NCBI GenBank assembly: GCA_963700665.1
Contig: CAVOYK010000001.1
Coordinates: 542,958 to 606,957, forward strand
Source of the DNA: an uncultured Actinomycetes bacterium
Lineage (GTDB): Bacteria > Actinomycetota > Coriobacteriia > Anaerosomatales > PHET01
Reading direction: 5' to 3'
Length of the DNA: 64,000 nucleotides
In this document: piece after piece, positions 10,234 through 26,703 of the stretch
Layout: each line of letters opens with the position of its first letter
Numbering within the stretch: position 1 is the stretch's first letter
Program-made: the position numbers and the translations under genes
The notes under the pieces: generated by a model
Told to the model about the DNA's origin: nothing
Database searches by the model: none
The model's input: the letters and a program-made list of their open reading frames with translations, nothing else

Positions 10234-11545
10234 CTACAGCTCGTGGAACAGCGGCGGTGGCTCGACAGCTGCGTCGCTGAGCTTCAGTGAGTCCCTGAAC
10301 CGCTCCTCGCCTCGGTCGAGCAGCTCCTCTGTACGGGCGTACATCGTGCACAGCACGTCACCGCGGCGAACGGCGTCCCCCGTGCGAACGGCAAGCTGGA
10401 GTCCCGCTCCGAAGTCGATGGCGTCCTCCTTCGAAGCACGCCCCGCTCCCAGCAGCATGGCCGCCCTGCCTATCCCCTCGGCGTCGCAGCCAATGACGAA
10501 GCCCTCACTCTCGGCGCGCACCTCTCGCACGCACGGGGATAGCGGCAGCAGCTCGGGGTCGTCGGCGATGCGGGCGTCACCTCCTTGCGCTGCGATCCAG
10601 AGCCGAAAGCGCTCGAGGGCGCTCCCGTCGGCTATCGCAGACGCACAGCGCTGACGGGCGCTCGCTCTCGGATTCACACACCTCGCCCATGACGAGCATC
10701 TTGGCCCCAAGCGCTACACACAGCTCGGACAGCGCGATCGGACCATCCCCCCTCAGGGTCTCGATGGCCTCGCGCACCTCGAGCACGTTGCCCACCGCCA
10801 TACCCAGCGGCTGGCTCATGTCGGTCATGACGCACACGATCTCTCTGCCGAGCACCGCGCCGACTCGAACGAGCTCTCGCGCCAAAGCCCGGGCGTCCTG
10901 CTCTGTCTTCATGAACGCACCGGAGCCGACCTTGACGTCGAGCAGAACCGCATCGGCTCCGCCCGCGATCTTCTTGGAGATGATGCTTCCCACGATCAGA
11001 GGGATGCTGGGAACGGTGGCCGTCACGTCGCGCAGCGCGTAGATCTTCTTGTCCGCCGGATCCACGTCGGGCGACTGCGCGATCACGGCGATTCCGACGT
11101 CTCGGACCTGGGCCACGAACTGCTCGGGACTCAGCTCTATCGAGTAGCCCGGAATCGACTCGAGCTTGTCCAGCGTGCCGCCGGTGAAGCCCAGGCCGCG
11201 TCCGCTCATCTTGGCCACCGGTACGCCGCACGCCGCCACGAGCGGGGCAAGGACGAGCGTCGTCGTGTCGGCGACCCCGCCGGTCGAGTGCTTGTCGACC
11301 TTGACGCCAGGGATGGACGACAGATCGACCTGCCTGCCGGAGCGCACCATCGCGTCGGTCATCCAGACCGTCTCGTCCGGACCGAGACCGTTGAGTAGCG
11401 CCGCCATCAGCCAGGCCGCCATCTGGTAGTCGGGGATCTCGCCATCGGTGTAGCCGTGGATGATGCGCTCGAGCTCCTCGGCGGAGTGGGCGTGCCCGTC
11501 CCGCTTGCGCTCGATGAGCTCTTCGATGGTCGTCTCGACGCTCAC
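10234..11545 (-). CDS. pdp: Pyrimidine-nucleoside (thymidine) phosphorylase (frameshift near 10670)
   Basis: [47 protein letters not shown]; C-terminal [13 protein letters not shown]. Confidence 0.95.
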
Positions 11546-12739
11546 GCCCCGCGCACCTCGGCCAGGAAGCTCGTGCCGCGACCGCACTGCCCGGCAAGCC
11601 CGTAGAAGTCCAGCACCGACTCCCCGATGTCGCTGAACGTCGCTCGCGTGCCGAGCGCGACACCACGATCGACACCCTTCACGTACGCGATCAGCGGAGT
11701 GTACTCGCGAGAATGGTCCGTGGACGGTGTCGTCGGATCGCATCCGTGATCCGCCGTGATGATGAGCAGATCGCCGGCGATCATCGCGTCGAGCAGCTCG
11801 GGAATGCGCGCGTCGACCGCCTCCAGCCCGCGCGCGTAGCCTTCGGCATCGTTGCGATGACCCCACACCATGTCGAAGTCGACGAGATTGGCAAAGACGA
11901 ATCCGTTGTCCGTCGTCGTCGGCCACGCGCTTCACCAGGTTGTCGACGCCGTGCATGTTGTTCTCGGAGTGCGGCGACTCGCAGATGCCCCTCCAGGCGA
12001 AGATCTCGCCGATCTTGCCGATGCCGTACGACACGATTCCCTGCCCGGCCAGTACGTCGAGGACGGTCGGCTCGAACGGGGCAACGGCGAAGTCGCGTCG
12101 CCGGTGAGTCCGCGTGTAGGTGCCCGAATCGTCGGGACCGACGAACGGGCGCGCGATGACCCGGCCGACCGCATGCTCGCCGATGCAGACCCGCTCACGC
12201 GCGATCTTGCAGATGCGGTAGAGCTCCTCGATGCCGATCACCTCTTCGTGGGCGGCGATCTGGAAGACGCTGTCGGCACTGGTGTAGATGATCGGCTTGC
12301 CTGTCGCCACATGCTCATCGCCCAGTTCCTGGATGATCACCGTGCCGCTCGCCGGGTAGTTGCCCAGCCACCCGAGACCTGTCTCACGCTCGAACGCCGC
12401 CATGACGTCGGGTGGGAAGCCGTCGGGATAGGTGGGAAACGCGCTGGCCAGGGTGAGGCCCATCATCTCCCAGTGCCCGGTCGTCGTGTCCTTGCCGGCG
12501 CTGGCCTCGGCGTTTCTGCCCCACGAAGCTCGGGGCGTCGACGTAGGCGGAACACCCGAGACATCGGTGATGTTGCCGATTCCCATGGCGCCGAGATTCG
12601 GCAGGGTCAGCCCGCCGACGGCCGCAGCGGTGTTCGCGAGCGTGTTCGAGCCAGCGTCGCCGTACTCGTCGGCGTCGGGCAGCTCGCCGACACCGACGCT
12701 GTCGAGGACCAGCACGATCGCGCGCGGGCTCCTCCCCAT
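11542..12739 (-). CDS. deoB: Phosphopentomutase (frameshift near 11900)
   Basis: [37 protein letters not shown]; second frame [16 protein letters not shown]. Confidence 0.95.
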
Positions 12740-15332: not shown

Positions 15333-16817
15333 CTACAGAAGGAATCCTCGAAGGGCAGACGAGAAGGGCATCACGAGTGGGGCCAGCCCCAGGACCAGAA
15401 CGGCTAGCGCAAGCAAGATCACCACGCCCTCGGACACGCTGGCCTGCCCGGATTCGCGACCCGGTTCATCGGTCGGTCGGCTGTAGATGACGCGAACCAC
15501 CGAACCGTAGTAGCCCACCGAGATCACCGATCCAAGGATGCCTACGAGAGCGAGAACGCCGAAGAGCACGGCGAGGTTGATCGTCGCAGGCTGTCGAAAC
15601 CCGACCGCGAGAACCACAGCTGCCCTGAAGGCCTGCAGCTTGCCCCAGAAGCCGAGAAGCGGCGGGATTCCAGCCAAGGACAACACCAGCACGCTCAGCG
15701 CGAGCCCCAAGAGCGGCCGTCGGCGAGCCGCACCGGCAAGTTGCCGGGTCGAGCCATCCCAATCTGGGTTCTCGATGCTGAAGGCGTGAGCGGCGACAAA
15801 GGTGCCTGTTGAGGCGATGGCGTACGTGCACGCGAAGAAGACGGCTGCCGAGTGGTTGCCCGCAGCAACGGCGATCAGCGCGTAGCCCACCTGCGCCACG
15901 CCTGCGTACGCGAGCATGCGTGTGTACGACTTCTGGCGCCACGCCAGAAGCGAGCCCACGAGCACCGAGAGCACCGCGATCCCCGCGACCACAGGGAAGA
16001 GCTGCGATCCCAGCAGGCCCATGGGGCGAGCTTGCGTGGCTCCAGCACTGCCGATCACCACGGCGACCGTCGCAAGCGAGGTGATCATGGCCAGCTTGAC
16101 CGGGCCGGCCAGAAAAGCCGCCACCGGCCTGGGCGCGGTCTCGTACGCGTCAGGGGCCCACGAGTGGAACGGCGCGCCGCCCGTCTTGAAGACGAGACCG
16201 GCGAGCAGCAGCGTCATCGCGAAAAGGAGCGGTAGGCGGGGACCTTGCTCGATGGAGCCGACGATGTCCGGATAGGAGCCGCTTGACGCGTAAGCGCCTA
16301 CGAGCACCGCTGCCGCGAGCGCGATGAGCGCGGTGACTACGGCTCCCTGCACGAGGTACTTCATCGCCGCCTCCGACGACGCCCGCGTGCGCGTGGCAGC
16401 CACGAGGGCGTATCCACTGGCGGCCGCAATCTCCAGTGCGATGAGCAGGGTCACGACATCGGTTGCCTGCGCGGCAACGCCCGCACCCACCGATGCGAGG
16501 CACACAAGTGCGGTCTGCTGAGCGATCGAAGCGCCCTCCGACTCAGTCGATGCAGTCGACAGCGCGCACACGCCCCCCAAGACCCCGACGAGTCCCGCCA
16601 CGCCGGAGAACGCGGCGCCGGATATGAAACTCCCATAGGTGACCGTCGGCGGTACCGTCCAGGAGGCGTACAGGGACACCCCTCCTCCGGCGACAAGGAG
16701 CAACGCGGAGAGTCGGGACGCGCCCGTGCCTCTCCCCAGGCCGTCTCCAGCCAAGGCGAGCAGGGATGCGACCCCGAAGGCGCCGAATGTTAGGGCGAAG
16801 ACAGTCTCGGCCGCCAC
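15333..16817 (-). CDS. nuoN: NADH-quinone oxidoreductase subunit N
   Basis: EAAMKYL, FKTGGAPFHSWAPDAYE, RMLAYAGVAQ.GY and LSLAGIPPL.GF.GK. Confidence 0.93.
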   Translation of the reverse strand: MAAETVFALTFGAFGVASLLALAGDGLGRGTGASRLSALLLVAGGGVSLYASWTVPPTVTYGSFISGAAFSGVAGLVGVLGGVCALSTASTESEGASIAQQTALVCLASVGAGVAAQATDVVTLLIALEIAAASGYALVAATRTRASSEAAMKYLVQGAVVTALIALAAAVLVGAYASSGSYPDIVGSIEQGPRLPLLFAMTLLLAGLVFKTGGAPFHSWAPDAYETAPRPVAAFLAGPVKLAMITSLATVAVVIGSAGATQARPMGLLGSQLFPVVAGIAVLSVLVGSLLAWRQKSYTRMLAYAGVAQVGYALIAVAAGNHSAAVFFACTYAIASTGTFVAAHAFSIENPDWDGSTRQLAGAARRRPLLGLALSVLVLSLAGIPPLLGFWGKLQAFRAAVVLAVGFRQPATINLAVLFGVLALVGILGSVISVGYYGSVVRVIYSRPTDEPGRESGQASVSEGVVILLALAVLVLGLAPLVMPFSSALRGFLL

Positions 16818-18260
16818 TCACGCCCCCGTTTCCAGCAGGCGGGTCAGCGTCTCGACCGCAGCGTGCGACATGTTGACGATCACCCAAGGCGCCACGCCCA
16901 GCACAAGGATGCCGGCGGCCATCGCCGTACTCGTAGCGACTTGGCGGCTATCGAGATCAGGGAGCTCCCCGAAGTCTCCGACCGGTCCTTGGACAGACGC
17001 GCGAACGGCCCTCAGGTTGTAGGCAGCAGCCAGTACGACTCCCAGACCTACTGCGATGACGACCCAGCCGTAGGCAGAGTACGTTTCCAAGATAGTGACG
17101 AACTCTCCCGGGAAACCTGAGAGAGCGGGTAGACCGGCCGACGCCAACGACGCGAACACGAAGGCCATGGCCCATCTCGGCGTTACGGACCCCAGACCGC
17201 CGAATCGAGACAGCTCGCGAGTGTGAGTTCTTTCGTACAAAACGCCCACAAGATAGAAGAGCATGCCGGCGACGAAGCCGTGGCTCACCATAGTGAGAAG
17301 CGCCGCGCTCAGACCGTCGGCGCCGCCGGTCGAGATGGCGAGAACCACGAAGCCCATGTGCGCAACGGACGAGTACGCCACAAGCCTCTTCAAGTCGGTT
17401 TGCACGAGAGCAGTCGCCGCACCCCAGATGATGCCGATGACGCCCAGCGCGGCCAACACGGAGCGCCCGGACGCAAACGCCGTGGGGGCAAGTGGCAGGG
17501 CGATTCGAAGAAGCCCGTAGCCGCCCATCTTGAGCAACACTCCGGCAAGCACTATCGACCCCGCGGTAGGGGCCTCGGTGTGCGCGTCGGGCAGCCACGT
17601 GTGGACTGGAACGACAGGCAACTTCACCAAGAAACCGGCTGCCATCAGCCAAAACACGAGTTCCGGTGAGGCTATCGCGTCACGCCCGGCGATCAGGTCT
17701 ACTATCGAGATCGCTCCGACCGATGTCCAAGCCACCAGGATGCCGACCAGCAGCAGACCCCCGCCCGCGAACGTGTAGACAAGGAACTTCATCGCGGCCT
17801 TGCGAGAGTTCGCGGAGCCCCACCCCGCAATGAGCAGGAACATCGGAATCAACACCGACTCCCAGGCTATGTAGAACAAGATGACGTTGTCGGCAAGAAA
17901 GACCGCGGCCACCGCCGCCTGCAGCAAGAGCAGCAGCGCGAAGTGAGCCCCACTTCGCTCGGACACCTTCCAAGAAGCCGATATGGCGATGATTCCGATG
18001 AACGACGTGAGTACCAGAAGCGGCGTCGACAATCCGTCGGTGGAGAGTCCCCATACTCCACCCAGCGCGCCCGCATCGGCGCCCACGAGCCGAGCTCCAG
18101 CGAAGATCCCTGCTGGACCGAGCGCCATCAACAGGCCGCCTTGAGCCGCGGCGGCGGCCAGAGCTATCCACCGGGGTGCCTCAGGCCAGCTTCTGGACAC
18201 CAGGACCGCTATCGGCGCGAGCACCAGCGGAATCAGCACGATGAGATCGAGGGCGAGCAT
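16818..18260 (-). CDS. nuoM: NADH-quinone oxidoreductase subunit M
   Basis: FYIAWE, VKLP.VP.HTWLPDAHTEAP, LLKMGGYG and DLKRLVAYSSVAHMG. Confidence 0.95.
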   Translation of the reverse strand: MLALDLIVLIPLVLAPIAVLVSRSWPEAPRWIALAAAAAQGGLLMALGPAGIFAGARLVGADAGALGGVWGLSTDGLSTPLLVLTSFIGIIAISASWKVSERSGAHFALLLLLQAAVAAVFLADNVILFYIAWESVLIPMFLLIAGWGSANSRKAAMKFLVYTFAGGGLLLVGILVAWTSVGAISIVDLIAGRDAIASPELVFWLMAAGFLVKLPVVPVHTWLPDAHTEAPTAGSIVLAGVLLKMGGYGLLRIALPLAPTAFASGRSVLAALGVIGIIWGAATALVQTDLKRLVAYSSVAHMGFVVLAISTGGADGLSAALLTMVSHGFVAGMLFYLVGVLYERTHTRELSRFGGLGSVTPRWAMAFVFASLASAGLPALSGFPGEFVTILETYSAYGWVVIAVGLGVVLAAAYNLRAVRASVQGPVGDFGELPDLDSRQVATSTAMAAGILVLGVAPWVIVNMSHAAVETLTRLLETGA

Positions 18261-18265
18261 CTGCC

Positions 18266-20118
18266 TCACCGCCCCCCTACTGCGACGGCTACCAGCATGG
18301 CCGCGACGCCAACGGCAATCGCCAGCGCGTAGCCCTGGCCATCGCCGGTCTGAAGCCGCGAGAGGGCCGTTCCCGATATCCTCACGAGCGCCGCGGTGCC
18401 GTCCACCGCACCGTCGATCAAGAGCCGGTCGCCCCACGCCCACAGCACCCTACACAGAGTCACTGTCGGCCGCACAACGAGGCGGTCGACCAACGCGTCC
18501 CAGCCAAAGCCAGAGCGCAGAACCAGCCCGATCTTGCCAAGCCGTTGCATGAACGCCGAGTCGCGGCCGGTGTCTTTGCCGATCGAGCCATCCGGCCGTC
18601 CCGCCGGCCAGCGCCAAGGTGACAGCGAGCGCCGAGACGCCGAGCGCGAGGGGCTCGGCCTCGGCACCGAGCAACTCAGCCATCTGGGACCCGAACCAGC
18701 CAAGACCCACGGCCAAGGCAGCGAGCACCACCAGCGGTCCGAGCATCGAGCGTGGGCTCTCGTGCGGGTGAGCTTCGGCAGGCGTGGAGCCGAAGAAGGC
18801 GAGCCGAGTGGCGCGTGCCATGTAGAACGCGGTCAAGGCGCTGGCCGCAAGCAATGCCCACCCGGCGACGGGCGCATCGTGCAGCACCGCCTCGAGAACG
18901 GCGTCCTTGCTGAAGAACCCCGCGAACCCCGGGATGCCGGCGAGTGCCAACGCGCCCACAAGCCATGTGGCAAACGTGACCGGCATCGCCTTGCGCAACC
19001 CACCCATCTCGTGCAAGTCCTGCGTACCGGATCCGTGTATGACACTGCCGGAGCCCAGGAAGAGCAATCCCTTGAACGCCGCGTGGGTGACCAGGTGGAA
19101 GAAGGCCGCCGCCCATGCCCCCACGCCGAGTGCGGCGAACATGAACCCCAGCTGACTGATGGTCGAGAATGCAAGGACCTTCTTGATGTCGCGCTGGACG
19201 ACTGCGATCAGCGCCGCGCCTAGGGCGGAAATGGCACCCGCAGCCAGCACGAGTTCGCGCGCGCCGGGAGCGAGCTCGAAGATCGGCCACACTCTCACGA
19301 TCAGGAAGACTCCCGCTGCAACCATCGTCGCAGCGTGTATGAGCGCCGAGACCGGCGTGGGACCCTCCATCGCATCGGGCAGCCACGCGTGAAGCGGGAA
19401 CTGCGCGGACTTGCCCATGGCCCCGATCGCGATGCAGATGGCCGCGGCCTGCAGCAGCCCCGCCGGCATGGGCTCGATGCGTGCGATGACCTCTTGGTAG
19501 GCAAGCGACCCCGTGGCCCACCACAGCACGGACAGCCCCACCAGCAGTCCCACGTCGCCTACTCGCGTGGTAAGGAACGCCTTGACCGCCGCCGCCGCGG
19601 CCGTCGGCTTCTCGAACCAGAATCCGATGAGCAGGTAGGAACACGCGCCTACCAGCTCCCAGCCGATGAACAACCCCACGAACGAGTCGGCTATCACCAG
19701 CAAGGACATCGATCCGGTGAAGAGCGACAGCAGGGCGAAGTAGCGGTTCCAGCCCTTGTCGTCAGCCATGTAGCCCACCGAGAAGACCACGACACACAGA
19801 GCGACAACGCCCACGACGCGCGAGCATCACCGCGGTCAGCGAGTCGATAGCCCAGCCAACGCCGAGCGGACCGCGTCCCACCGTGAACCACGGCAGGCTG
19901 CCTTCGGACACAAGGGCGCTCGTCCAGGGCGACGCCGTGGCCGTCGTGCCAAAGGCAGCCCTCCCCGCCGAGAAGGACAGAGAGATGACCATCAGCGGGC
20001 CCAACGCCGCGATCCACGGCGCGAGACCCTTTCTGGCAGGCCCGAGTAGCGCGATCACGGCAGCCAGAAGGAACGGCAACCCCACGACGACCCAAGGTGA
20101 GTGGAGAATGAGAGGCAT
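18266..20118 (-). CDS. nuoL: NADH-quinone oxidoreductase subunit L (indels near 19815 and 18550)
   Basis: WELVGACSYLLIGFW, GKSAQFPLHAWLPDAMEGPTPVSALIHAATMV and HAAFKGLLF. Confidence 0.95.
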
Positions 20119-20417
20119 CAGCCCTTCACCTCCGACATCTCGTCGATGCGGGTGGTGCCCATTCGCCTGGCAACCGCAACGAGCAGAGCAAGTCCGACGG
20201 CCGCTTCTGCCGCCGCAAGCACGATGACCAGGAGCGCGACCGCCTGGATCGTCGCCGGATCGGAGCCCCTGTTGAGTGCTCCGACAGACGTGAGCACAAG
20301 AAGCGCCGCACCCATCATCACCTCGACCGAGGCGAGGATCGCGACCACGTCCCGCCGGGTGAGGACCCCGTACAGCCCGATGGAGAAGAGGGCGCCTGTG
20401 ATGACCAGAACGCTCAC
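20118..20417 (-). CDS. nuoK: NADH-quinone oxidoreductase subunit K
   Basis: LFSIGLYGVLTRR, SVEVM and AAAEAAVGLALLV. Confidence 0.93.
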   Translation of the reverse strand: MSVLVITGALFSIGLYGVLTRRDVVAILASVEVMMGAALLVLTSVGALNRGSDPATIQAVALLVIVLAAAEAAVGLALLVAVARRMGTTRIDEMSEVKG

Positions 20418-20905
20418 TCGCTGCCCCCTGAGATAGAAACGACCGCCACCAAGGCGGCAAGAAGGAGCACGCCGGCCAGCTCGAACTGCGGCAGCAACGG
20501 GCCCAAGAGAGCCGCACCCAGCGCGTCGACCGCACCCGCGCCAGGCCCATCTGAAGGAGTGAAACCCGCTGCCAGCGGGCGGAGGAACACTACCAGGAAT
20601 CCGAACACGCCAGCCGACGCCACCACTGCCAGCAGATCGTGACGACTCTCCAGGGATGGTGAACCGGGGGCAGACCGATGCACCAGCATGATCGCGAACA
20701 GGAGCAGCACCAGGACGCCGCCGACGTAGACGAATATCTCCGCAAGAGCGAGGAACCCGAAGCCGAACAACGCGAAGAAGCCAGCGACCGCAAGCAGGAA
20801 CGCGCCGAGACCGAGCGCCATTCGCATGACTTCGCGCGAGAAGACGACTGCCACCGCACCGATGATCGCGAGGGTCGACAGACCCCAGAACAGTGCCGAC
20901 GTCAT
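20414..20905 (-). CDS. nuoJ: NADH-quinone oxidoreductase subunit J
   Basis: VYVGGVLVLLLFAIML and FELAGVLLLAALV. Confidence 0.93.
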   Translation of the reverse strand: MTSALFWGLSTLAIIGAVAVVFSREVMRMALGLGAFLLAVAGFFALFGFGFLALAEIFVYVGGVLVLLLFAIMLVHRSAPGSPSLESRHDLLAVVASAGVFGFLVVFLRPLAAGFTPSDGPGAGAVDALGAALLGPLLPQFELAGVLLLAALVAVVSISGGSE

Positions 20906-23064
20906 CGTTGAGTCTCCTCGTTCGTGCGCGCGCCGACCGCACTTGGCAGCGCCGACTCAGCCGCAACATGGCGCGTGCCATCCGCATCCGCGACGATGTG
21001 CGCGCTGCTCGTGGCAGCGCCCGGCCCGCTGTCCAGACCGGTTGCTCGCGAACCCTCTCCGGATCGGACCATCTGATCTCGATCGAAACGCGTCAGGTCT
21101 CTGCTGAAGAACGACAGCTCGTACTGCCCCGTGTGCTGAAGCGCACCCGTCGGGCACTGCTCCGCACACAGCCCGCAGTAGCAGCACTTCGACAGGTCGA
21201 GGTCGTAGCGGGCAACGCTGCGCGCGCCGGGGTCGTCGATGCGATCGACCAGGATGGCGTAGTCAGGACACGTCCGAGCGCAGAACTGGCAGCCGACGCA
21301 GACTCCGGACTCGCAGCGCAGACAGCGCGCGGCCTCGCTGAGCGCCTCAACGCGCGTGAATCCGAGCTCGACTTGGCGGAAGTCTCGGCAGCGTTCTTCG
21401 CCCGGCGCCATCGGCATCGTGACACGTCGGCGCGACGACTCGACGCCCTGCAGGTGGGCCTCGTTCGTATCGCGGATAGATCGGCACCGGTCGGTAGGCT
21501 CGGCCCTCACCGAGGTCGCGACCGCTGATGAAGCGGTGTATCGACTCCGCCGCCTCGTGCCCGCTTGCGATCGATGCGATACACGAGCCGGGCCCGGTCA
21601 CGACCTCGCCGCACGCAAAGACGCCCTCGACATGCGTGGTCATGAAGGTGCCGTCGACGGGCAGCAGGCCCCGCTCGGTCAAGATGAGATCCGACCCGCC
21701 GACCATGTCTTTGAGATCGGGTGCCTGCCCGATCGAGAACACGATCACGTCACACGACAGATCGGTGTACTCATCGGCGAACTGGGAGCGAAGCGTCCCT
21801 GTGCGTCGAAGACGGACAGACAGCTCTGCAAGCGCATGCCGACGACACGACCGTCTTGCTCGAGTACGTGGTGGGGTCCGTACGAGCACATCGCCGTGAC
21901 GCCTTCGTCGAGCGCCTCTTCGATCTCCCACGGGTGCGCCGGCAGCTCGTCCATCGACTCGAGAGACGAGAGAGTGACCTCGCTCGCACCGCAACGCAGG
22001 GCGACCCGCGCGCAGTCGACGGCCACGTTGCCGCCGCCGATGACCAAGCACCCTCTTGCCCTTGACGCCGGCGTCGCCCTTCCAGTTGCCCGCACGCAGG
22101 AACTCCAGAGCCCCGATCACACCCTCGGCATCGATGCCCGGAAGAGGAAGCATCCTGCTGACCTGCAGGCCTGCTGCGATCAGCACCGCCTCGTACTCGC
22201 CGACAAGGTGGTCGATCGGCACGTCCTCACCGATCTTGACGCCGGTGAACAGCTTCATGCCCATGGTCTGCAGGTCGTCGATCTCCTGGGCCAGAACGTC
22301 GCGCGGCAGCCGGTACGAGGGCACGCCCGAGAGCAAGGCGCCCCCCGGAGCATGGTCCTTCTCGTAGACGTGGACCTCGTACCCGAGCTTCATCAGATCG
22401 TGGGCCGCCGACAGTCCGCTGGGCCCGCTGCCGATGATCGCGATCCGCTCATCGCGCGTGACCGGGAGTGGCACGACGCGCGACTCCCTGAACTCGGCGT
22501 AGCGTTCGTAGGCGACCCGATGCAGCGGCCGGATGGCGATCGGCTCGTCGTAGTAGTTCCGCTTGCACGCCTGCTCGCACGGATGATGGCAGATCCTGCC
22601 AAGCACGCCGGGCATGACGTTGCGGTCTCGAACGAGCTCGTAGGCGTCGGCCGGATCGTCGTCGGCCAGGAAGTACGACTGTCCACGCGCGTCGACGTTG
22701 GCAGGACAGTTCCCGACACACGGCGGCAAGCCCTCGGCATCGTGAAGCTGCTCGATGAAGCCGTTGTACTCCGAGGAGGGCGCGGTGATGACGTCGATGG
22801 CGTCCCGCCCGAGAATCCCTGTGAGCCGCAGTGCGCCTCTCCAGCGCGGCGAAAGGGTGAGCTTCTCGAAGGGGTAGCGGAGCGTCTCTGGCTTCTCGGC
22901 GGCCCTTCGAGCGGTGATCCTCAGCCCGTGATCAGGCTGGACCACCTCTCGACGAAGCCCTTCACACCCGGGCTGAAGTCGTTGGAGACCGACACCTTGA
23001 GCGGTACGCTCTGCGGCGTGCGGTCTGGGGCGTTCACGTCGGGGCGTGCGGGCTCTAGAGCCAC
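20902..23064 (-). CDS. nuoI: NuoI with an inserted GltD/NfnB-like FAD/NAD(P)H Fe-S oxidoreductase (about 720 aa once indels near 22925, 22050, 21785 and 21460 are repaired)
   Basis: NuoI N-terminus (TLRYPFEKLTLSPRWRG), then PPCVGNCP / GRICHHPCEQAC / GSGPSG / GGGNVAVD / EAARCLRC, then the NuoI 2x[4Fe-4S] domain CVGCQFCARTCP...CCYCGLCAEQCP...YEL. Lies between nuoH and nuoJ. Confidence 0.88.
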
Positions 23065-24006
23065 GGCAGCACCACCCCCACCATGACGAGCTGCACGAGC
23101 GCCATCGGCGTGAGGACCTTCCACGCCAGGCCCATGAGCTGGTCCGGACGCATGCGCGGGAAGGTCCACTTCACCCAGATCATCGCCGTGGCGATCGCAA
23201 CGGCGATACCAACAAACACGATGCCTGCGAGCGGCTCGGGAAGGCCAAGACCCCCGCCAAAGAAGACGGCCGCGCCAAAGAGCGAGGCAGCGACGATGCC
23301 GCCGTACTCCGACCATCATGAAGATCGCCCAGCGGATGCCCGAGTAGTCGGCGAAGTAGCCGGCGACGAGTTCGGACTCGGCCTCAGGCAGGTCGAACGG
23401 ACCGCGATTGACCTCGGCGATCGAGGAGATGAAGTAGACGACGAAGCCCAGGGCCGTCAACGGGATCCACCACAATCGCCACTCGGCCCGGATCGTGCCG
23501 GCAGACAGCGACCCCGCCAGAAGACACAGCGCGAGAACCGATAGCGTGCGCGGCAGCTCGTAGGAGATCATCTGGGCAGCCGCCCTCACCCCGCCGATGC
23601 TCGCGTAGGTGTTTTGCGACGACCATCCGGCAAGCAGGATGCCGAGAACGCTCAGCCCCGGGACCGCCAGGAAGAACAGTGCGCCGGTCGAGATGTCGAG
23701 CGGCGCCCACCCGGAGGCGTACGGGATGACCACCAGGGCGCTCGCGATGGGCACGAAGACCAGAAACGGCATGGCGCGAAAGACCGCACGTCGGCCTGCG
23801 CCGGGGTGATGTCCTCCTTGAGCACCAGCTTCACCGTGTCGGCGAGCGTCTGCAGCAGTCCGGACGGGCCGGCCTCTTGCGGGCCGTAGCGCAGCTGGAT
23901 GCGCCCGGCGACCTTGCGCTCCCACCACACGCCGATGAGCGCGGCGATGCGCGATCAACAACGCCGCAGCCAGGCCCCAGGCGGCGCCCTGAAGCATCGA
24001 GCTCAT
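23055..24006 (-). CDS. nuoH: NADH-quinone oxidoreductase subunit H (frameshifted in assembly)
   Basis: [37 protein letters not shown] and [16 protein letters not shown]. Confidence 0.93.
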
Positions 24007-25153
24007 CGGTCCACCTCCCCGAAGACGGGGTCGAGTGAGCCGAGGACGACGACCAGGTCGGAGAGTGTGTGCCCGACGGCGAGCTTGGGCAGCAGGGCGA
24101 GGTTGCAGAACGCGGGGCTGCGGACGTGCATGCGGTACGGCCGCGGCGAGCCGTCGCTGACGAGGTAGACGCCCAACGAGCCGCGAGCGCTCTCGATGTG
24201 GTCGTAGGCCTCCCCCGGCCGGTGGCGTGATCAGACGCGGTATTCCGTCGGTCAGGACCACGCCGCCCGGCATCTGGGCGATGGCCTGCTCGATGATGCG
24301 CGCTGACTCGTAGCACTCGAAGAGGCGGCATCGGCCGCGATCGTACGCATCGCCGTTGTCGCCCACGACCACGTCGAAGTCCATGCGCGGATAGACCGAG
24401 TACGGATCGTGCTTGCGCAGGTCCCAGTTCACGCCCGAACCGCGCGCGGTGGGGCCTGAAGCACCCCACGCCACCGCGTCCTCGGCGCTCAGCACCCCGA
24501 TGCCCTTCATGCGACCGCGGGCGATCATGTTGCCGAAGAACAGGTCGTCCATCTCGTGCCAGCTTCGCGCCGAGACCCGTCACGAACGCGAGGACGTCGT
24601 CGGTCCAGCCCTCAGGCGCGTCGAACGCCACTCCGCCCGGCCGCACGTAGTTGTACGTCAGGCGGGCACCGCACAGCGCCTCGAAGAGCTCGACGATGCG
24701 CTCGCGCACGTCGAACGCGTAGACGAACATGGTGGTCGCGCCGGTGTCGGCCGCCGATGCGCCCGATGCCCATCATGTGACTCGCGATGCGCTGCAGCTC
24801 GCACACGATGACGCGCAGATACTCGGCGCGCTCGGGCACCCGGTATGCCCGACGAGCCGCTCCACCGCTCGGCAGTACGCCCAGTTCGCGTACATGGAAC
24901 CCACGTAGTCGAGACGGTCTGTCAGCGGCACGACCTGCAGGTAGGTGCGGTTCTCGGCCATCTTCTCGATGCCGCGGTGAAGATAGCCGACGACCATGTC
25001 CGCCCGCACGACGACGTCGCCATCGAGGTGCACGACGACTCGGCCAACACCGTGAGTCGAGGGGTGGGACGGACCGACGTTGACGACGAGCTCCTCGACG
25101 GGGGTGCCATCGGCCGACGCCACTAGCGAGCGAGACTGTATTTCGACGGGCAT
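24003..25153 (-). CDS. nuoD: NADH-quinone oxidoreductase subunit D (frameshifted in assembly)
   Basis: [41 protein letters not shown]; ends GEVDR. No NiFe CxxC motifs seen. Confidence 0.93.
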
Positions 25154-25170
25154 CGGCGACACACCCCCTC

Positions 25171-25632
25171 TCAGATGTAGTCCGGCCGGCGGATCATTCG
25201 CGGGTCGTCGTAGTCGCGCCGCAGCGGGTGTCCGACGAAGTCTTCGGGCAGGAAGATGCGACGCAGGTCGGGATGGCCCTCGAACACGATTCCGAACAGG
25301 TCGAAGATCTCGCGCTCTTGCCAGTTGGCCGCCGGCCACACGCCATAGACACTGGCGACCCGCGGGTCGTCTCGCGGGACTTTCGCCTTCATGAACACGG
25401 CCGCGGAGAGCGCCCGTGACTCGATGCGATAAACGAGGACGAACCACTCTCCCCGGTCGACCGCCGTCACCATGTCGAGCCGATCGAACCCGATGGCGGC
25501 GAACTCGGTGGCGACGTCAAGCACACTGTCACGCTCAACCTGGGCGACCACGTCGCCGAACTCCACCGAGAACAGCGGCCCCAGGACGGGCGAGGCATCG
25601 GCGAGTCTGTCTATGAGCGCCTGCGCGTTCAC
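25171..25632 (-). CDS. nuoC: NADH-quinone oxidoreductase subunit C
   Basis: [28 protein letters not shown]...GHPLRRDY. Confidence 0.95.
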
Positions 25633-26240
25633 TCCGGCTCACCCTCCCGCGCCGCTGCGGACGACTCGGGAGGACACGGGTCGGTGCCGCGGTAGGTCGC
25701 CGACTCCGGACGCGGCAAGGTGAGCTCGCGCTCTCGCCGCTTCCCGGGAGCGATCGACTCCGTGTGAACGAGCTCCCGAAGCTGCAGGACGCCGTCTTGC
25801 AGGGATTCGGGTCGCGGCGGACACCCGGAGATGTAGACGTCGACCGGAAGGAACTCGTCGGCGCCTCGCACGACCGAGTAGGTGTCGTAGTAGAAGATGC
25901 CGCCACTCACGGTGCAGTTGCCCATGGCGATGACCCACTTGGGATCGGGCATCTGGTCGTAGAGCAGCCGCACCGACGGCTTCATCTTGTCGGTGATGGT
26001 GCCGGCGAGGATCATGACGTCGGTGTGCCGCGGGTCCGGCCGCGGAAACGTGCCGAGGCGATCGAAGTCGAACTTGGAGAAGGACGCGGCGATGAGCTCC
26101 ATCGCGCAGCACGCCGTACCCATCGGAAACGCCCACAGCGACTGCCCGCGCGACCAGTCGGCAAGCGCGTCTACGCTCGTCAGAATGATCCCGCCCGGAC
26201 CGGTGGCCAAGGCGCTGCCGATACGGTCTACTAGCGCCAT
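25629..26240 (-). CDS. nuoB: NADH-quinone oxidoreductase subunit B
   Basis: [25 protein letters not shown] and [14 protein letters not shown]. Confidence 0.95.
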
Positions 26241-26593
26241 TCGAGTGCCCCCTTCCGCCAGGCGTACGCGAGGCCGACGGCAAGGAACAGCACGAACAGT
26301 CCAACCTCCACGAGGGCCAGCAGGTTGCCGCGCAACCGAGTAGCCACGGCGAACAAGAGCACGGCTTCGGCGTCGAAGAGCACGAGGAGCATCGCCATGG
26401 TGGAGAACCGCATACGCTGCGCGGACCACGGCCTGCCAGCTTGATCGAGACCGCACTCGTAGGGCGAGTTCTTCGGCGCGTTGGGCGCGCGGGGCGACAG
26501 AACCGCATTCGCAAGGAACACGACGCCGATGAAGGCAGACGCCGAGACGGCGAGGCCGATCACGAACAGCAATGCTTGGGCAGAAGCCCCCAT
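26231..26593 (-). CDS. nuoA: NADH-quinone oxidoreductase subunit A
   Basis: KNSPYECG, LFDAE and [11 protein letters not shown]. Confidence 0.95.
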   Translation of the reverse strand: MGASAQALLFVIGLAVSASAFIGVVFLANAVLSPRAPNAPKNSPYECGLDQAGRPWSAQRMRFSTMAMLLVLFDAEAVLLFAVATRLRGNLLALVEVGLFVLFLAVGLAYAWRKGALEWR

Positions 26594-26703
26594 ACAGCCC
26601 CCTGGCTGCTGTCTTCTGAGCGAGCGTCCCCCGCTTCAGGCCGGCGAGACAGTCCGAAGGTCGCCGCCAGCGCAGACGCGTTGTCCCCAGGCGACTTCCA
26701 GAC

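Follow-up and report, generated by a model that had tools for sequence, protein, structure and literature searches.

A circularly permuted GltD/NfnB-type flavoprotein cassette inside NuoI of a complex I operon in the order Anaerosomatales

The 64-kb stretch of DNA analysed here (referred to in full as the window; G+C ~65%) belongs to the genome of an uncultured actinobacterium of the order Anaerosomatales and carries, on its minus strand, a nuo operon for an 11-subunit complex I. We placed its genes by tblastn with eleven intact proteins of a related locus (L004) and converted the matches to window coordinates. The operon spans 15.4–26.6 kb in the order nuoA, B, C, D, H, I*, J, K, L, M, N, as a preliminary description made from the letters of the window had read it, and neither tblastn nor reading of the operon revealed nuoE, nuoF or nuoG within it. 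The slot between nuoH and nuoJ is occupied by nuoI*, which encodes a NuoI of ~720 residues carrying a GltD/NfnB-type cassette between its N-terminal segment and its 2x[4Fe-4S] domain. This cassette of ~470 to 500 residues has two Rossmann folds, one for FAD and one for NAD(P), and adds two [4Fe-4S] sites (Table 1).

Pfam searches on the four in-frame pieces of nuoI* assigned Fer4_20 and an FAD Rossmann fold to the first (P0001), an NAD(P) Rossmann fold to the second (P0002), the end of Pyr_redox_2 to the third (P0003) and a 4Fe-4S dicluster to the fourth (P0004); the intact fused protein of L004 gave the identical domain result. The NCBIfam NuoI models match residues 65–148 of P0004 and reach the last model position. 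In a six-frame search of the whole genome, the match to TIGR01971 was split by the insert, with model positions 1–42 and 41–121 falling ~1.5 kb apart, and it ran through the last position, 121, despite the interruption. A profile built from the N-terminal region of 18 homologues (A2) matched residues 60–104 of NDUFS8 (E = 2e-6), with 30 of the 31 Protein Data Bank (PDB) sequences listed belonging to the NuoI family, while the C-terminal domain aligned with NDUFS8 residues 106–192. The split TIGR01971 match and the NDUFS8 matches place the insert exactly at the junction of the N-terminal segment of NuoI with its first cluster motif. Both NuoI ends that the preliminary description had recognized were thus borne out, and the three families sought by profile, NuoI, Fer4_20 and Pyr_redox_2, were all matched in the expected order.

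The assembled gene is interrupted. Residues 1–705 of an intact 718-residue homologue (P0005) are covered by five window pieces in frames -2, -1, -2, -1 and -2 (23064–22918, then to 22046, 22062–21784, 21781–21464 and 21465–20950; tblastn). The defects amount to exactly four frameshifts, with no other stops, and the pieces are 68–84% identical to P0005; the gene boundaries (20902–23064) and the count of four indels given in the preliminary description were correct by tblastn and three-frame translation. We compared the sites with contigs of four public metagenome runs aligned on nuoI*. Contigs of other runs show single-base differences at three of the four sites; a point that counts against our case is their depth of 2–3.3 and possible origin in the window's own sample, which makes them supporting rather than independent. 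The first site is without contig cover, and no RNA data set was listed for this stretch. Two contigs of run X2 (records 10 and 11) otherwise differ from the window at one letter in 151.

Three other genes of the operon, nuoD, nuoH and nuoL, are frameshifted as well, in a genome assembly of 2.45 Mb in 13 contigs that is 77% complete by score. Because these genes are broken too, the contigs of other runs differ at the sites and relatives carry the gene intact, the four frameshifts in nuoI* are most likely assembly errors. An alternative is that the copy in the window is decaying as a pseudogene, or that the fusion arose in assembly, and that the organism makes no functional fused protein. Four frameshifts in 2.2 kb and the one site lacking contig cover are what this alternative can call upon. 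We regard it as highly improbable given the absence of stops beyond the four shifts, the 68–84% identity of the pieces to P0005, the frameshifts shared by nuoD, nuoH and nuoL, the one-base differences at three sites, and an intact open reading frame (ORF) in 60 of 67 genomes of the same order, which come from many independent assemblies. Elsewhere in the window, a 720-residue ORF on the minus strand (10577–12739) has ends that, read by eye, resemble two different nucleoside-metabolism enzymes joined via a middle part in another frame, probably the product of two more frameshifts.

Table 1 Features of the nuo operon, of nuoI* and of its frameshift sites (window coordinates)
Feature	Position	Strand	Basis and remarks
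nuoA	26234..26599	-	tblastn with L004 protein, 73% identity
nuoB	25689..26288	-	tblastn, 80% identity; tandem-Cys motif and SGCPP in translation
nuoC	25174..25620	-	tblastn, 68% identity
nuoD	24006..25153	-	tblastn; three frame pieces (two frameshifts); DRLDY present in translation
nuoH	23058..23948	-	tblastn; three frame pieces
nuoI*	20902..23064	-	~720 codons; GTG start overlaps nuoH end; four frameshifts (tblastn of P0005, three-frame translation)
nuoJ	20567..20899	-	tblastn
nuoK	20127..20393	-	tblastn
nuoL	18326..20121	-	tblastn; several frame pieces
nuoM	16848..18260	-	tblastn
nuoN	15429..16808	-	tblastn
NuoI N-terminal segment (G.RIT.R....TLRYP.EK..LSPRWRG)	22802..22927	-	TIGR01971 1–42; NDUFS8 60–104 profile match
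Fer4_20 part of cassette (PPCVGNCP and GRICHHPCE..C), ligands of two GltD-type [4Fe-4S] clusters	22499..22726	-	PF14691 positions 30–108 of 113, E = 1.9e-11
FAD-binding Rossmann motif (GSGPSG)	22328..22447	-	Pfam NAD_binding_8, DAO and Pyr_redox_2 on P0001 167–206
NAD(P)-binding Rossmann motif (GGGNVA ... LSSLES)	21892..22047	-	Pyr_redox_2 positions 146–200 on P0002
C-terminal part of Pyr_redox_2 flavin domain	21560..21772	-	PF07992 positions 222–291 on P0003
Post-flavin segment, homologue of NfnB N-terminus, ending RCLRC (permuted piece)	21313..21432	-	profile A3; phmmer to 4ylf_B
NuoI 2x[4Fe-4S] domain and NuoI-specific C-terminal stretch	21070..21309	-	TIGR01971 41–121; P0004 65–148; NDUFS8 106–192
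Frameshift 1	22921..22945	-	inside SSLITG/LRITARR; translation and tblastn; no contig of the four runs covers 22800–22945
Frameshift 2	22046..22050	-	window one base longer than related contig at 22049 (run X1)
Frameshift 3	21781..21784	-	window one base short: T after 21782 (X1, X2), C after 21784 (X3)
Frameshift 4	21461..21465	-	window one base longer (21461) than a 151-nt X2 contig differing at one other letter

Relatives encode the fused protein in one piece. Searching with the first in-frame piece, which includes the NuoI N-terminus, we obtained homologues of which the 120 best listed are single proteins, 119 of them 654–733 residues long and one a 1266-residue call, with 69–87% identity over 92–98% of the query. 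Those that carry a name are called 'FAD-dependent oxidoreductase [Coriobacteriia bacterium]' or 'glutamate synthase beta subunit-like oxidoreductase'. At 54 of 80 loci fetched from species-representative genomes (L004–L056 and L065; the neighbour names at L004 were confirmed by Pfam), the fused gene lies within a nuo operon, with nuoH upstream and nuoJ, nuoK or nuoL downstream where the contig reaches. At the remaining 26 the match sets in at about residue 51, and by the criteria used no nuo genes accompany it; these loci encode GltD-ferredoxin proteins that stand free. Of 150 genomes sampled from the class, 67 belong to the same order and 83 to other orders; a full-length match without internal stops was found in 60 of the former and in none of the latter. 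Intact single-ORF homologues in the nuo operons of relatives, which had been set beforehand as a test of the fusion, are thus common at the fetched loci, and full-length copies are common in the order.

Farther nuo-embedded copies (42–48% identity) bear labels such as Candidatus Geothermocultor, Actinomycetota and 'Elusimicrobia UBA5214', and 10 of the 150 best listed representatives at 50% identity span both NuoI ends, down to 37% identity. A metagenome scan with divergent representatives and generic Rossmann patterns yielded no locus of the NuoI* type among 80, and a single one with any other nuo-like match. At the locus labelled Elusimicrobia bacterium UBA5214 (L047), the fused nuoI operon is flanked on both sides by several extra NuoL/M-like antiporter genes; its phylum label is possibly doubtful, given 47% identity to the actinobacterial copies. 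The source genome of the window also has free-standing GltD-type paralogues at C5:129240–130829 and C3:45309–46476, the former 39% identical to the fused protein over residues 135–675.

To define the cofactor sites, we aligned 22 family members (34–86% identity to the first sequence), in which 15 Cys and one Glu never vary. Eight of these ligands lie in the cassette (C99, C103, C142, C146, E147, C150, C564 and C567) and eight in the two CxxCxxCxxxCP motifs of the NuoI domain (C572, C575, C578 and C582-P; C610, C613, C616 and C620-P). Equally invariant are the NuoI N-terminal motif (T44, Y47, P48, R59 and G60), the FAD glycine motif (G195, G197 and G200) and the NAD motif (G326, G328 and A331). 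The 16 ligands are enough for four [4Fe-4S] clusters, with a putative, homology-based assignment of ligands to individual clusters. Only four residues separate the last cassette Cys, which is invariant, from the start of the NuoI cluster motifs (RCLRC-x4-CxxCxxCxxxCP), and this adjacency argues that the outer cassette cluster and a NuoI cluster are neighbours.

The order of the pieces within the cassette differs from that of GltD and NfnB. Fer4_20 is matched only from profile position 30, and no Cys stands ahead of PPCVGNCP. By phmmer, NfnB (4ylf_B) aligns in two pieces, its residues 46–459 with 98–496 and its residues 4–43 with 528–568. A profile of the post-flavin piece from 20 loci (A3) matches the extreme N-terminus of NfnB-type proteins (4ylf_B 4–42, E = 1.1e-9; 5jca_L 8–45, E = 5e-8; 5vj7_A) and also stretches downstream of the flavin domain in 9bov_A (527–566), 9n5u_A (552–593) and StnC (8oh5_C, 528–565). 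Because of the two-piece NfnB and A3 matches, we take the third Cys of the GltD motif as the point where the chain comes into the cassette and the second as the last it passes before going out; the collinear domain order of GltD/NfnB, with the EA.RCL.C piece ahead of PC...CP, was not found in the nuoI* product. On these alignments, the cassette is circularly permuted relative to NfnB. The insert had been described as a member of the GltD/SudA/NfnB family with FAD, NAD(P) and extra Cys motifs; the family stands, but the insert is not a plain GltD. Four free-standing relatives (P0132, P0134, P0136 and P0151) begin just before PC...CP and have the same piece order. The C-terminal tails of P0132, P0134 and P0136 resemble MvhD/FlpD-type domains by eye, which hints at the cassette in heterodisulfide-reductase-like systems.

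The same piece order occurs in StnC, whose residues 101–624 are collinear with residues 96–621 of the family. An AlphaFold2 model calculated from the 22-sequence alignment reached a mean predicted local distance difference test (pLDDT) score of 74.3 and a predicted template modelling (pTM) score of 0.70, with the flavoprotein part at 80–96. Its best Foldseek match is the large subunit of C. saccharolyticus NfnABC (9bov_A; E = 3e-42, TM 0.60, 604 columns), and the other top matches are S. ovata StnABC (8oh5_C) and T. sibiricus NfnABC (9n5u_A); NfnB, GltD and DPD ranked below. StnC is described as a GltD domain (residues 102–565) fused into a NuoG-like protein, and its electron path as linear, from NADPH to FAD to C7, C6, C5 and onward, with a non-bifurcating FAD (PMC10482914). 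The nuoI* cassette is the StnC/NfnABC cassette in a different host subunit, and this shared cassette is the main basis for the mechanism proposed below.

The nucleotide site differs between subgroups of the family. Where the second strand of the NAD(P) Rossmann fold ends, 16 of the 22 members have (S/C/M)LE, among them every one of the 13 close relatives of the window gene; the other six, all of them distant, have YRR(S/T). YRR is also found at this site in StnC (solved with NADPH), NfnB, 9bov_A and 9n5u_A. As a general rule for Rossmann folds, an acidic residue at this site favours NADH. Read by this rule, the replacement of YRR by (S/C/M)LE suggests that the cassette of the window lineage is probably NADH-linked.

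We then examined the quinone side of the complex. The L004 NuoD orthologue matches the 49-kDa subunits of mitochondrial and bacterial complex I best (E = 1e-103; Thermus thermophilus, 9e-97), and its matches to Mbs (3e-66), Mbh (3e-57) and formate hydrogenlyase (6e-42) are far weaker. It retains the His and Tyr aligned to H59 and Y108 of bovine NDUFS2, which we take to be the quinone ligands, and the motifs are also present in the window copy. The window NuoB has the tandem-Cys motif, and NuoA, NuoJ and NuoK are present. A tandem-Cys motif in NuoB is described as the signature of cluster N2 (PMC4758237). From these residues, NuoB and NuoD look quinone-competent.

Genes for menaquinone synthesis were found as well. 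MqnC (449 bits) and MqnE (507 bits), both over the cut-off, are clustered with an MqnA/D-family gene at C5:152082–155191, and a UbiA-family gene lies elsewhere in the source genome. MqnE exceeds the cut-off in 50 of 71 genomes of the order, the source genome included. Among the 39 genomes that fall in both samples, 30 have the fused nuoI and MqnE, four the fused gene only, two MqnE only and three neither; as the genomes are related, these counts do not amount to a statistical test.

The window operon is not the only one of its kind in the source genome. An ordinary NuoI is encoded in each of two more nuo-like operons (A, B, C, D, H, I, ..., L, M, N), at C1:29.9–39.3 kb (L089) and C4:127.4–138.6 kb (L090); their subunits are 30–50% identical to those of the window, and they are also frameshifted. 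The first adjoins, on the opposite strand, a NuoE/F/G-like trio at C1:41–47 kb (L089:12875–19148, minus strand), itself frameshifted and ~520 kb from the window. The NuoG-like protein of the trio has full molybdopterin domains, and by its sequence the trio looks like an NAD-linked formate dehydrogenase. The earlier statement that complex I here lacks nuoEFG thus holds for each nuo operon but not for the genome. Three complexes that differ at NuoI fit the idea of different electron donors.

We think it reasonably likely that, by analogy with StnC, the fused NuoI serves as a one-polypeptide substitute for NuoEFG in an 11-subunit complex I and feeds it from NAD(P)H. In this mechanism NAD(P)H, in the window lineage probably NADH, would donate a hydride to the cassette FAD. 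From there, single electrons would travel via both cassette [4Fe-4S] clusters and the two NuoI clusters to N2 in NuoB and be accepted by menaquinone at the NuoD/NuoB/NuoH site, and NuoLMN would couple the transfer to the pumping of ions. The polypeptide itself comes in at PC...CP, passes through the FAD and NAD(P) domains and the piece that corresponds to the NfnB N-terminus (RCLRC), and meets the first NuoI cluster motif four residues on. The proposed close wiring between cassette and NuoI draws on the invariant RCLRC adjacency and on the solved structure of StnC, in which the same cassette feeds an Fe-S chain. Homology and context thus lend support to the single-polypeptide replacement of the N-module put forward in the preliminary description. 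The anatomy, its conservation, the operon setting and the StnC homology are shown, but donor and acceptor, flow direction and coupling are what we infer for this complex. Flavin-based bifurcation was considered and rejected, since a single Fe-S path leads from the FAD, the operon has no NfnA-like partner and StnC is non-bifurcating.

Several observations weigh against this proposal. Respiratory quinones are reported as not detected in either cultured member of the Anaerosomatales (PMC9686372), MenA (TIGR00751) was not found in the 77%-complete source genome, and MqnE was not found in 4 of the 34 fused-gene genomes sampled for it. NfnB-type proteins are reported to react with ferredoxin as well (PMC12221290). 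A NuoEFG-like cluster and two plain-NuoI operons coexist with the fused complex in the source genome. The AlphaFold model is less certain in its NuoI parts (only 64–79), and residues 42–56 and 630–700 fall below 50. Finally, no curated NCBIfam model exceeds its cut-off on an intact homologue (P0006): TIGR01971 scores 90 bits against 113.05, all PRK05888 NuoI models likewise stay below their cut-offs, and PRK12771, of which positions 42–561 of 566 match residues 91–626, scores 432 bits against 516.

Complex I is known to run in reverse in chemolithoautotrophs, which we count in favour of the opposite direction of flow through the same wiring. An ion gradient would then drive electrons from menaquinol up to NAD(P)+ for autotrophic CO2 fixation, the menaquinol being filled by a membrane H2-uptake hydrogenase or by formate oxidation. 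Both cultured relatives are reported to grow lithotrophically on H2 or formate and to have a group 1i hydrogenase with cytochrome b and genes of the reductive glycine pathway (PMC9686372), and GltD/NfnB-type modules are described as reversible (PMC10482914, PMC12221290). Set against this are the formate-dehydrogenase-like cluster with NuoEFG-like and molybdopterin domains, which could yield NADH straight from formate, the reported failure to detect quinones in the isolates (PMC9686372) and the fact that no sequence feature fixes the direction. We consider reverse flow unlikely as the main role.

Ferredoxin offers a second route. The cassette could be a ferredoxin docking or entry site, or a ferredoxin:NAD(P)+ oxidoreductase as proposed for Mbx-like complexes, with little or no quinone reduction. 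Stand-alone ferredoxin:NADP+ oxidoreductase activity is reported for NfnB-type proteins (PMC12221290), a ferredoxin donor was proposed for the EFG-less complex I by the authors of the isolates' genomes (PMC9686372), NAD(P)+ reduction was proposed for the gltD-related subunit of mbx-like operons (Degli Esposti, PMC4758237), and the missing quinones of the isolates (PMC9686372) would suit such a role. However, flow from ferredoxin to FAD would skip N2 and the coupling site in NuoD, yet NuoB and NuoD keep complex-I-type N2 and quinone-site residues. The two plain-NuoI operons of the source genome fit a ferredoxin donor better, and StnC, the closest solved relative, is described as using no ferredoxin at its GltD domain (PMC10482914, PMC12221290). 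On these grounds, a ferredoxin-linked cassette appears distinctly improbable to us, and we retain NAD(P)H as the favoured donor.

GltD-type flavoproteins have been placed in relatives of complex I before. In mbx-like operons of Thermotoga and proteobacteria, a gltD-related flavoprotein is described as a substitute for NuoI (Degli Esposti 2015, PMC4758237). We examined two Thermotogota Mbx-like loci. At one (G024:C30; L105:13120–14988, plus strand), a 622-residue protein fuses NuoB (Oxidored_q6) to a complete, unpermuted GltD (Fer4_20 1–112 and Pyr_redox_2), an architecture different from the NuoI insertion. Its cluster is Mrp/Mbx-like and includes MrpF-, NuoL-, NuoC-, NuoD- and NuoH-like genes; none of the ORFs scanned there was NuoI-like. 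The other (L104) has an ordinary NuoI-like gene of 130 codons. A search of 81 Thermotogota genomes with P0130 turned up no match that reaches from one NuoI end to the other, and the best matches lie in 2-oxoacid:ferredoxin oxidoreductase clusters. A permuted GltD-ferredoxin protein stands inside such clusters at L097:9011–10666, L097:12719–15715 and L098:7607–9385, and one 998-residue Thermotogota ORF joins Fer4_20 and Pyr_redox_2 to POR_N and TPP_enzyme_C, which looks like a replacement of the delta ferredoxin subunit by the flavoprotein.

Taking the evidence as a whole, we incline, if only slightly, to the following picture. The Anaerosomatales-type lineage and a few other deep-branching lineages may have a third, non-homologous input module for complex I, in which a permuted GltD spliced into NuoI would make an 11-subunit complex hitherto read as ferredoxin-dependent into a self-contained NADH:menaquinone oxidoreductase, or the reverse. 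The cassette would be portable, having entered NuoG-like proteins (StnC), NuoB-like proteins (Thermotogota Mbx-like) and the setting of 2-oxoacid oxidoreductases in independent events.

The preliminary description knew of no earlier account of such an insertion, and this held in part. A full-text search of main articles found no description of a GltD-type insert in NuoI, but a GltD flavoprotein built into a complex I relative is already in print, having been noted for the Mbx-like relative in 2015 (PMC4758237). The paper on the isolates gives the gene string nuoNMLKJIHDCBA, remarks that NuoEFG is missing and suggests ferredoxin, among others, as a donor; its account of this complex makes no mention of a flavoprotein domain in NuoI (PMC9686372). 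The search found no description of an insertion into the NuoI of a true nuo operon, of its permutation and relatedness to StnC, or of its distribution through the order.

The donor of NuoEFG-less complex I is a long-standing question, and ferredoxin is the usual guess; here, the donor site would be written into NuoI itself. If so, the metabolic reading of a widespread subsurface order would change, as the first description of isolates inferred 'alternative donors such as ferredoxin' (PMC9686372). Cultured members of the order exist, among them Anaerosoma tenue and Parvivirga hydrogeniphila, which makes the question directly testable. A reusable permuted flavoprotein cassette, spliced into various Fe-S subunits of the complex I/hydrogenase lineage, would be a clear case of modular evolution. 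Annotation pipelines overlook the fused NuoI, to which they give only generic oxidoreductase names and for which no curated model scores above its cut-off.

Compared with canonical NuoI (NDUFS8/TYKY, Nqo9), the nuoI* product shares the N-terminal segment, the two CxxCxxCxxxCP motifs, the C-terminal stretch and the nuoH–nuoJ slot; canonical NuoI has nothing that corresponds to the ~470 to 500 residues ahead of the first cluster motif that bring FAD, an NAD(P) site and two more clusters. NfnB, SudA and GltD have the same combination of Fer4_20 and Pyr_redox_2, with FAD, NAD(P)H, two [4Fe-4S] clusters and one non-Cys ligand position, and the Foldseek TM scores to these targets are 0.75–0.79. Unlike the nuoI* cassette, they are not permuted: NfnB residues 4–42 correspond to its post-flavin piece. 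Neither an NfnA nor a GltB partner gene occurs among the neighbour genes of the fused-nuoI operons at the fetched loci.

Among input modules, NuoEFG would have the same job as that proposed for the cassette, oxidation of a pyridine nucleotide at a flavin and delivery of single electrons to the NuoI clusters. The two are not homologous. NuoEFG has FMN in NuoF and six to seven clusters spread over three polypeptides, whereas the cassette has FAD in a two-Rossmann GltD fold and two clusters in one polypeptide, covalently within NuoI. FpoF/FqoF of archaeal F420H2 dehydrogenases is an alternative input module on an 11-subunit complex I core; it is a separate subunit of different fold and substrate (F420H2) and is not fused to FpoI. 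The GltD-related flavoprotein of mbx-like operons likewise represents a GltD-type flavoprotein in a NuoEFG-less relative of complex I (PMC4758237). The closest likeness is to the large subunits of StnABC and NfnABC (8oh5_C, 9bov_A and 9n5u_A), which have the same permuted cassette over ~525 collinear residues in an Fe-S subunit of the complex I/hydrogenase lineage, with more clusters directly after it. In StnC the cassette is described as a non-bifurcating NADPH input module. The host of StnC is NuoG/HydA-like and soluble, whereas that of nuoI* is the NuoI of a membrane complex; the nucleotide site reads YRR in StnC and SLE in the window lineage; and the partner modules are StnAB for StnC and NuoB, NuoC, NuoD and NuoH for the nuoI* product.

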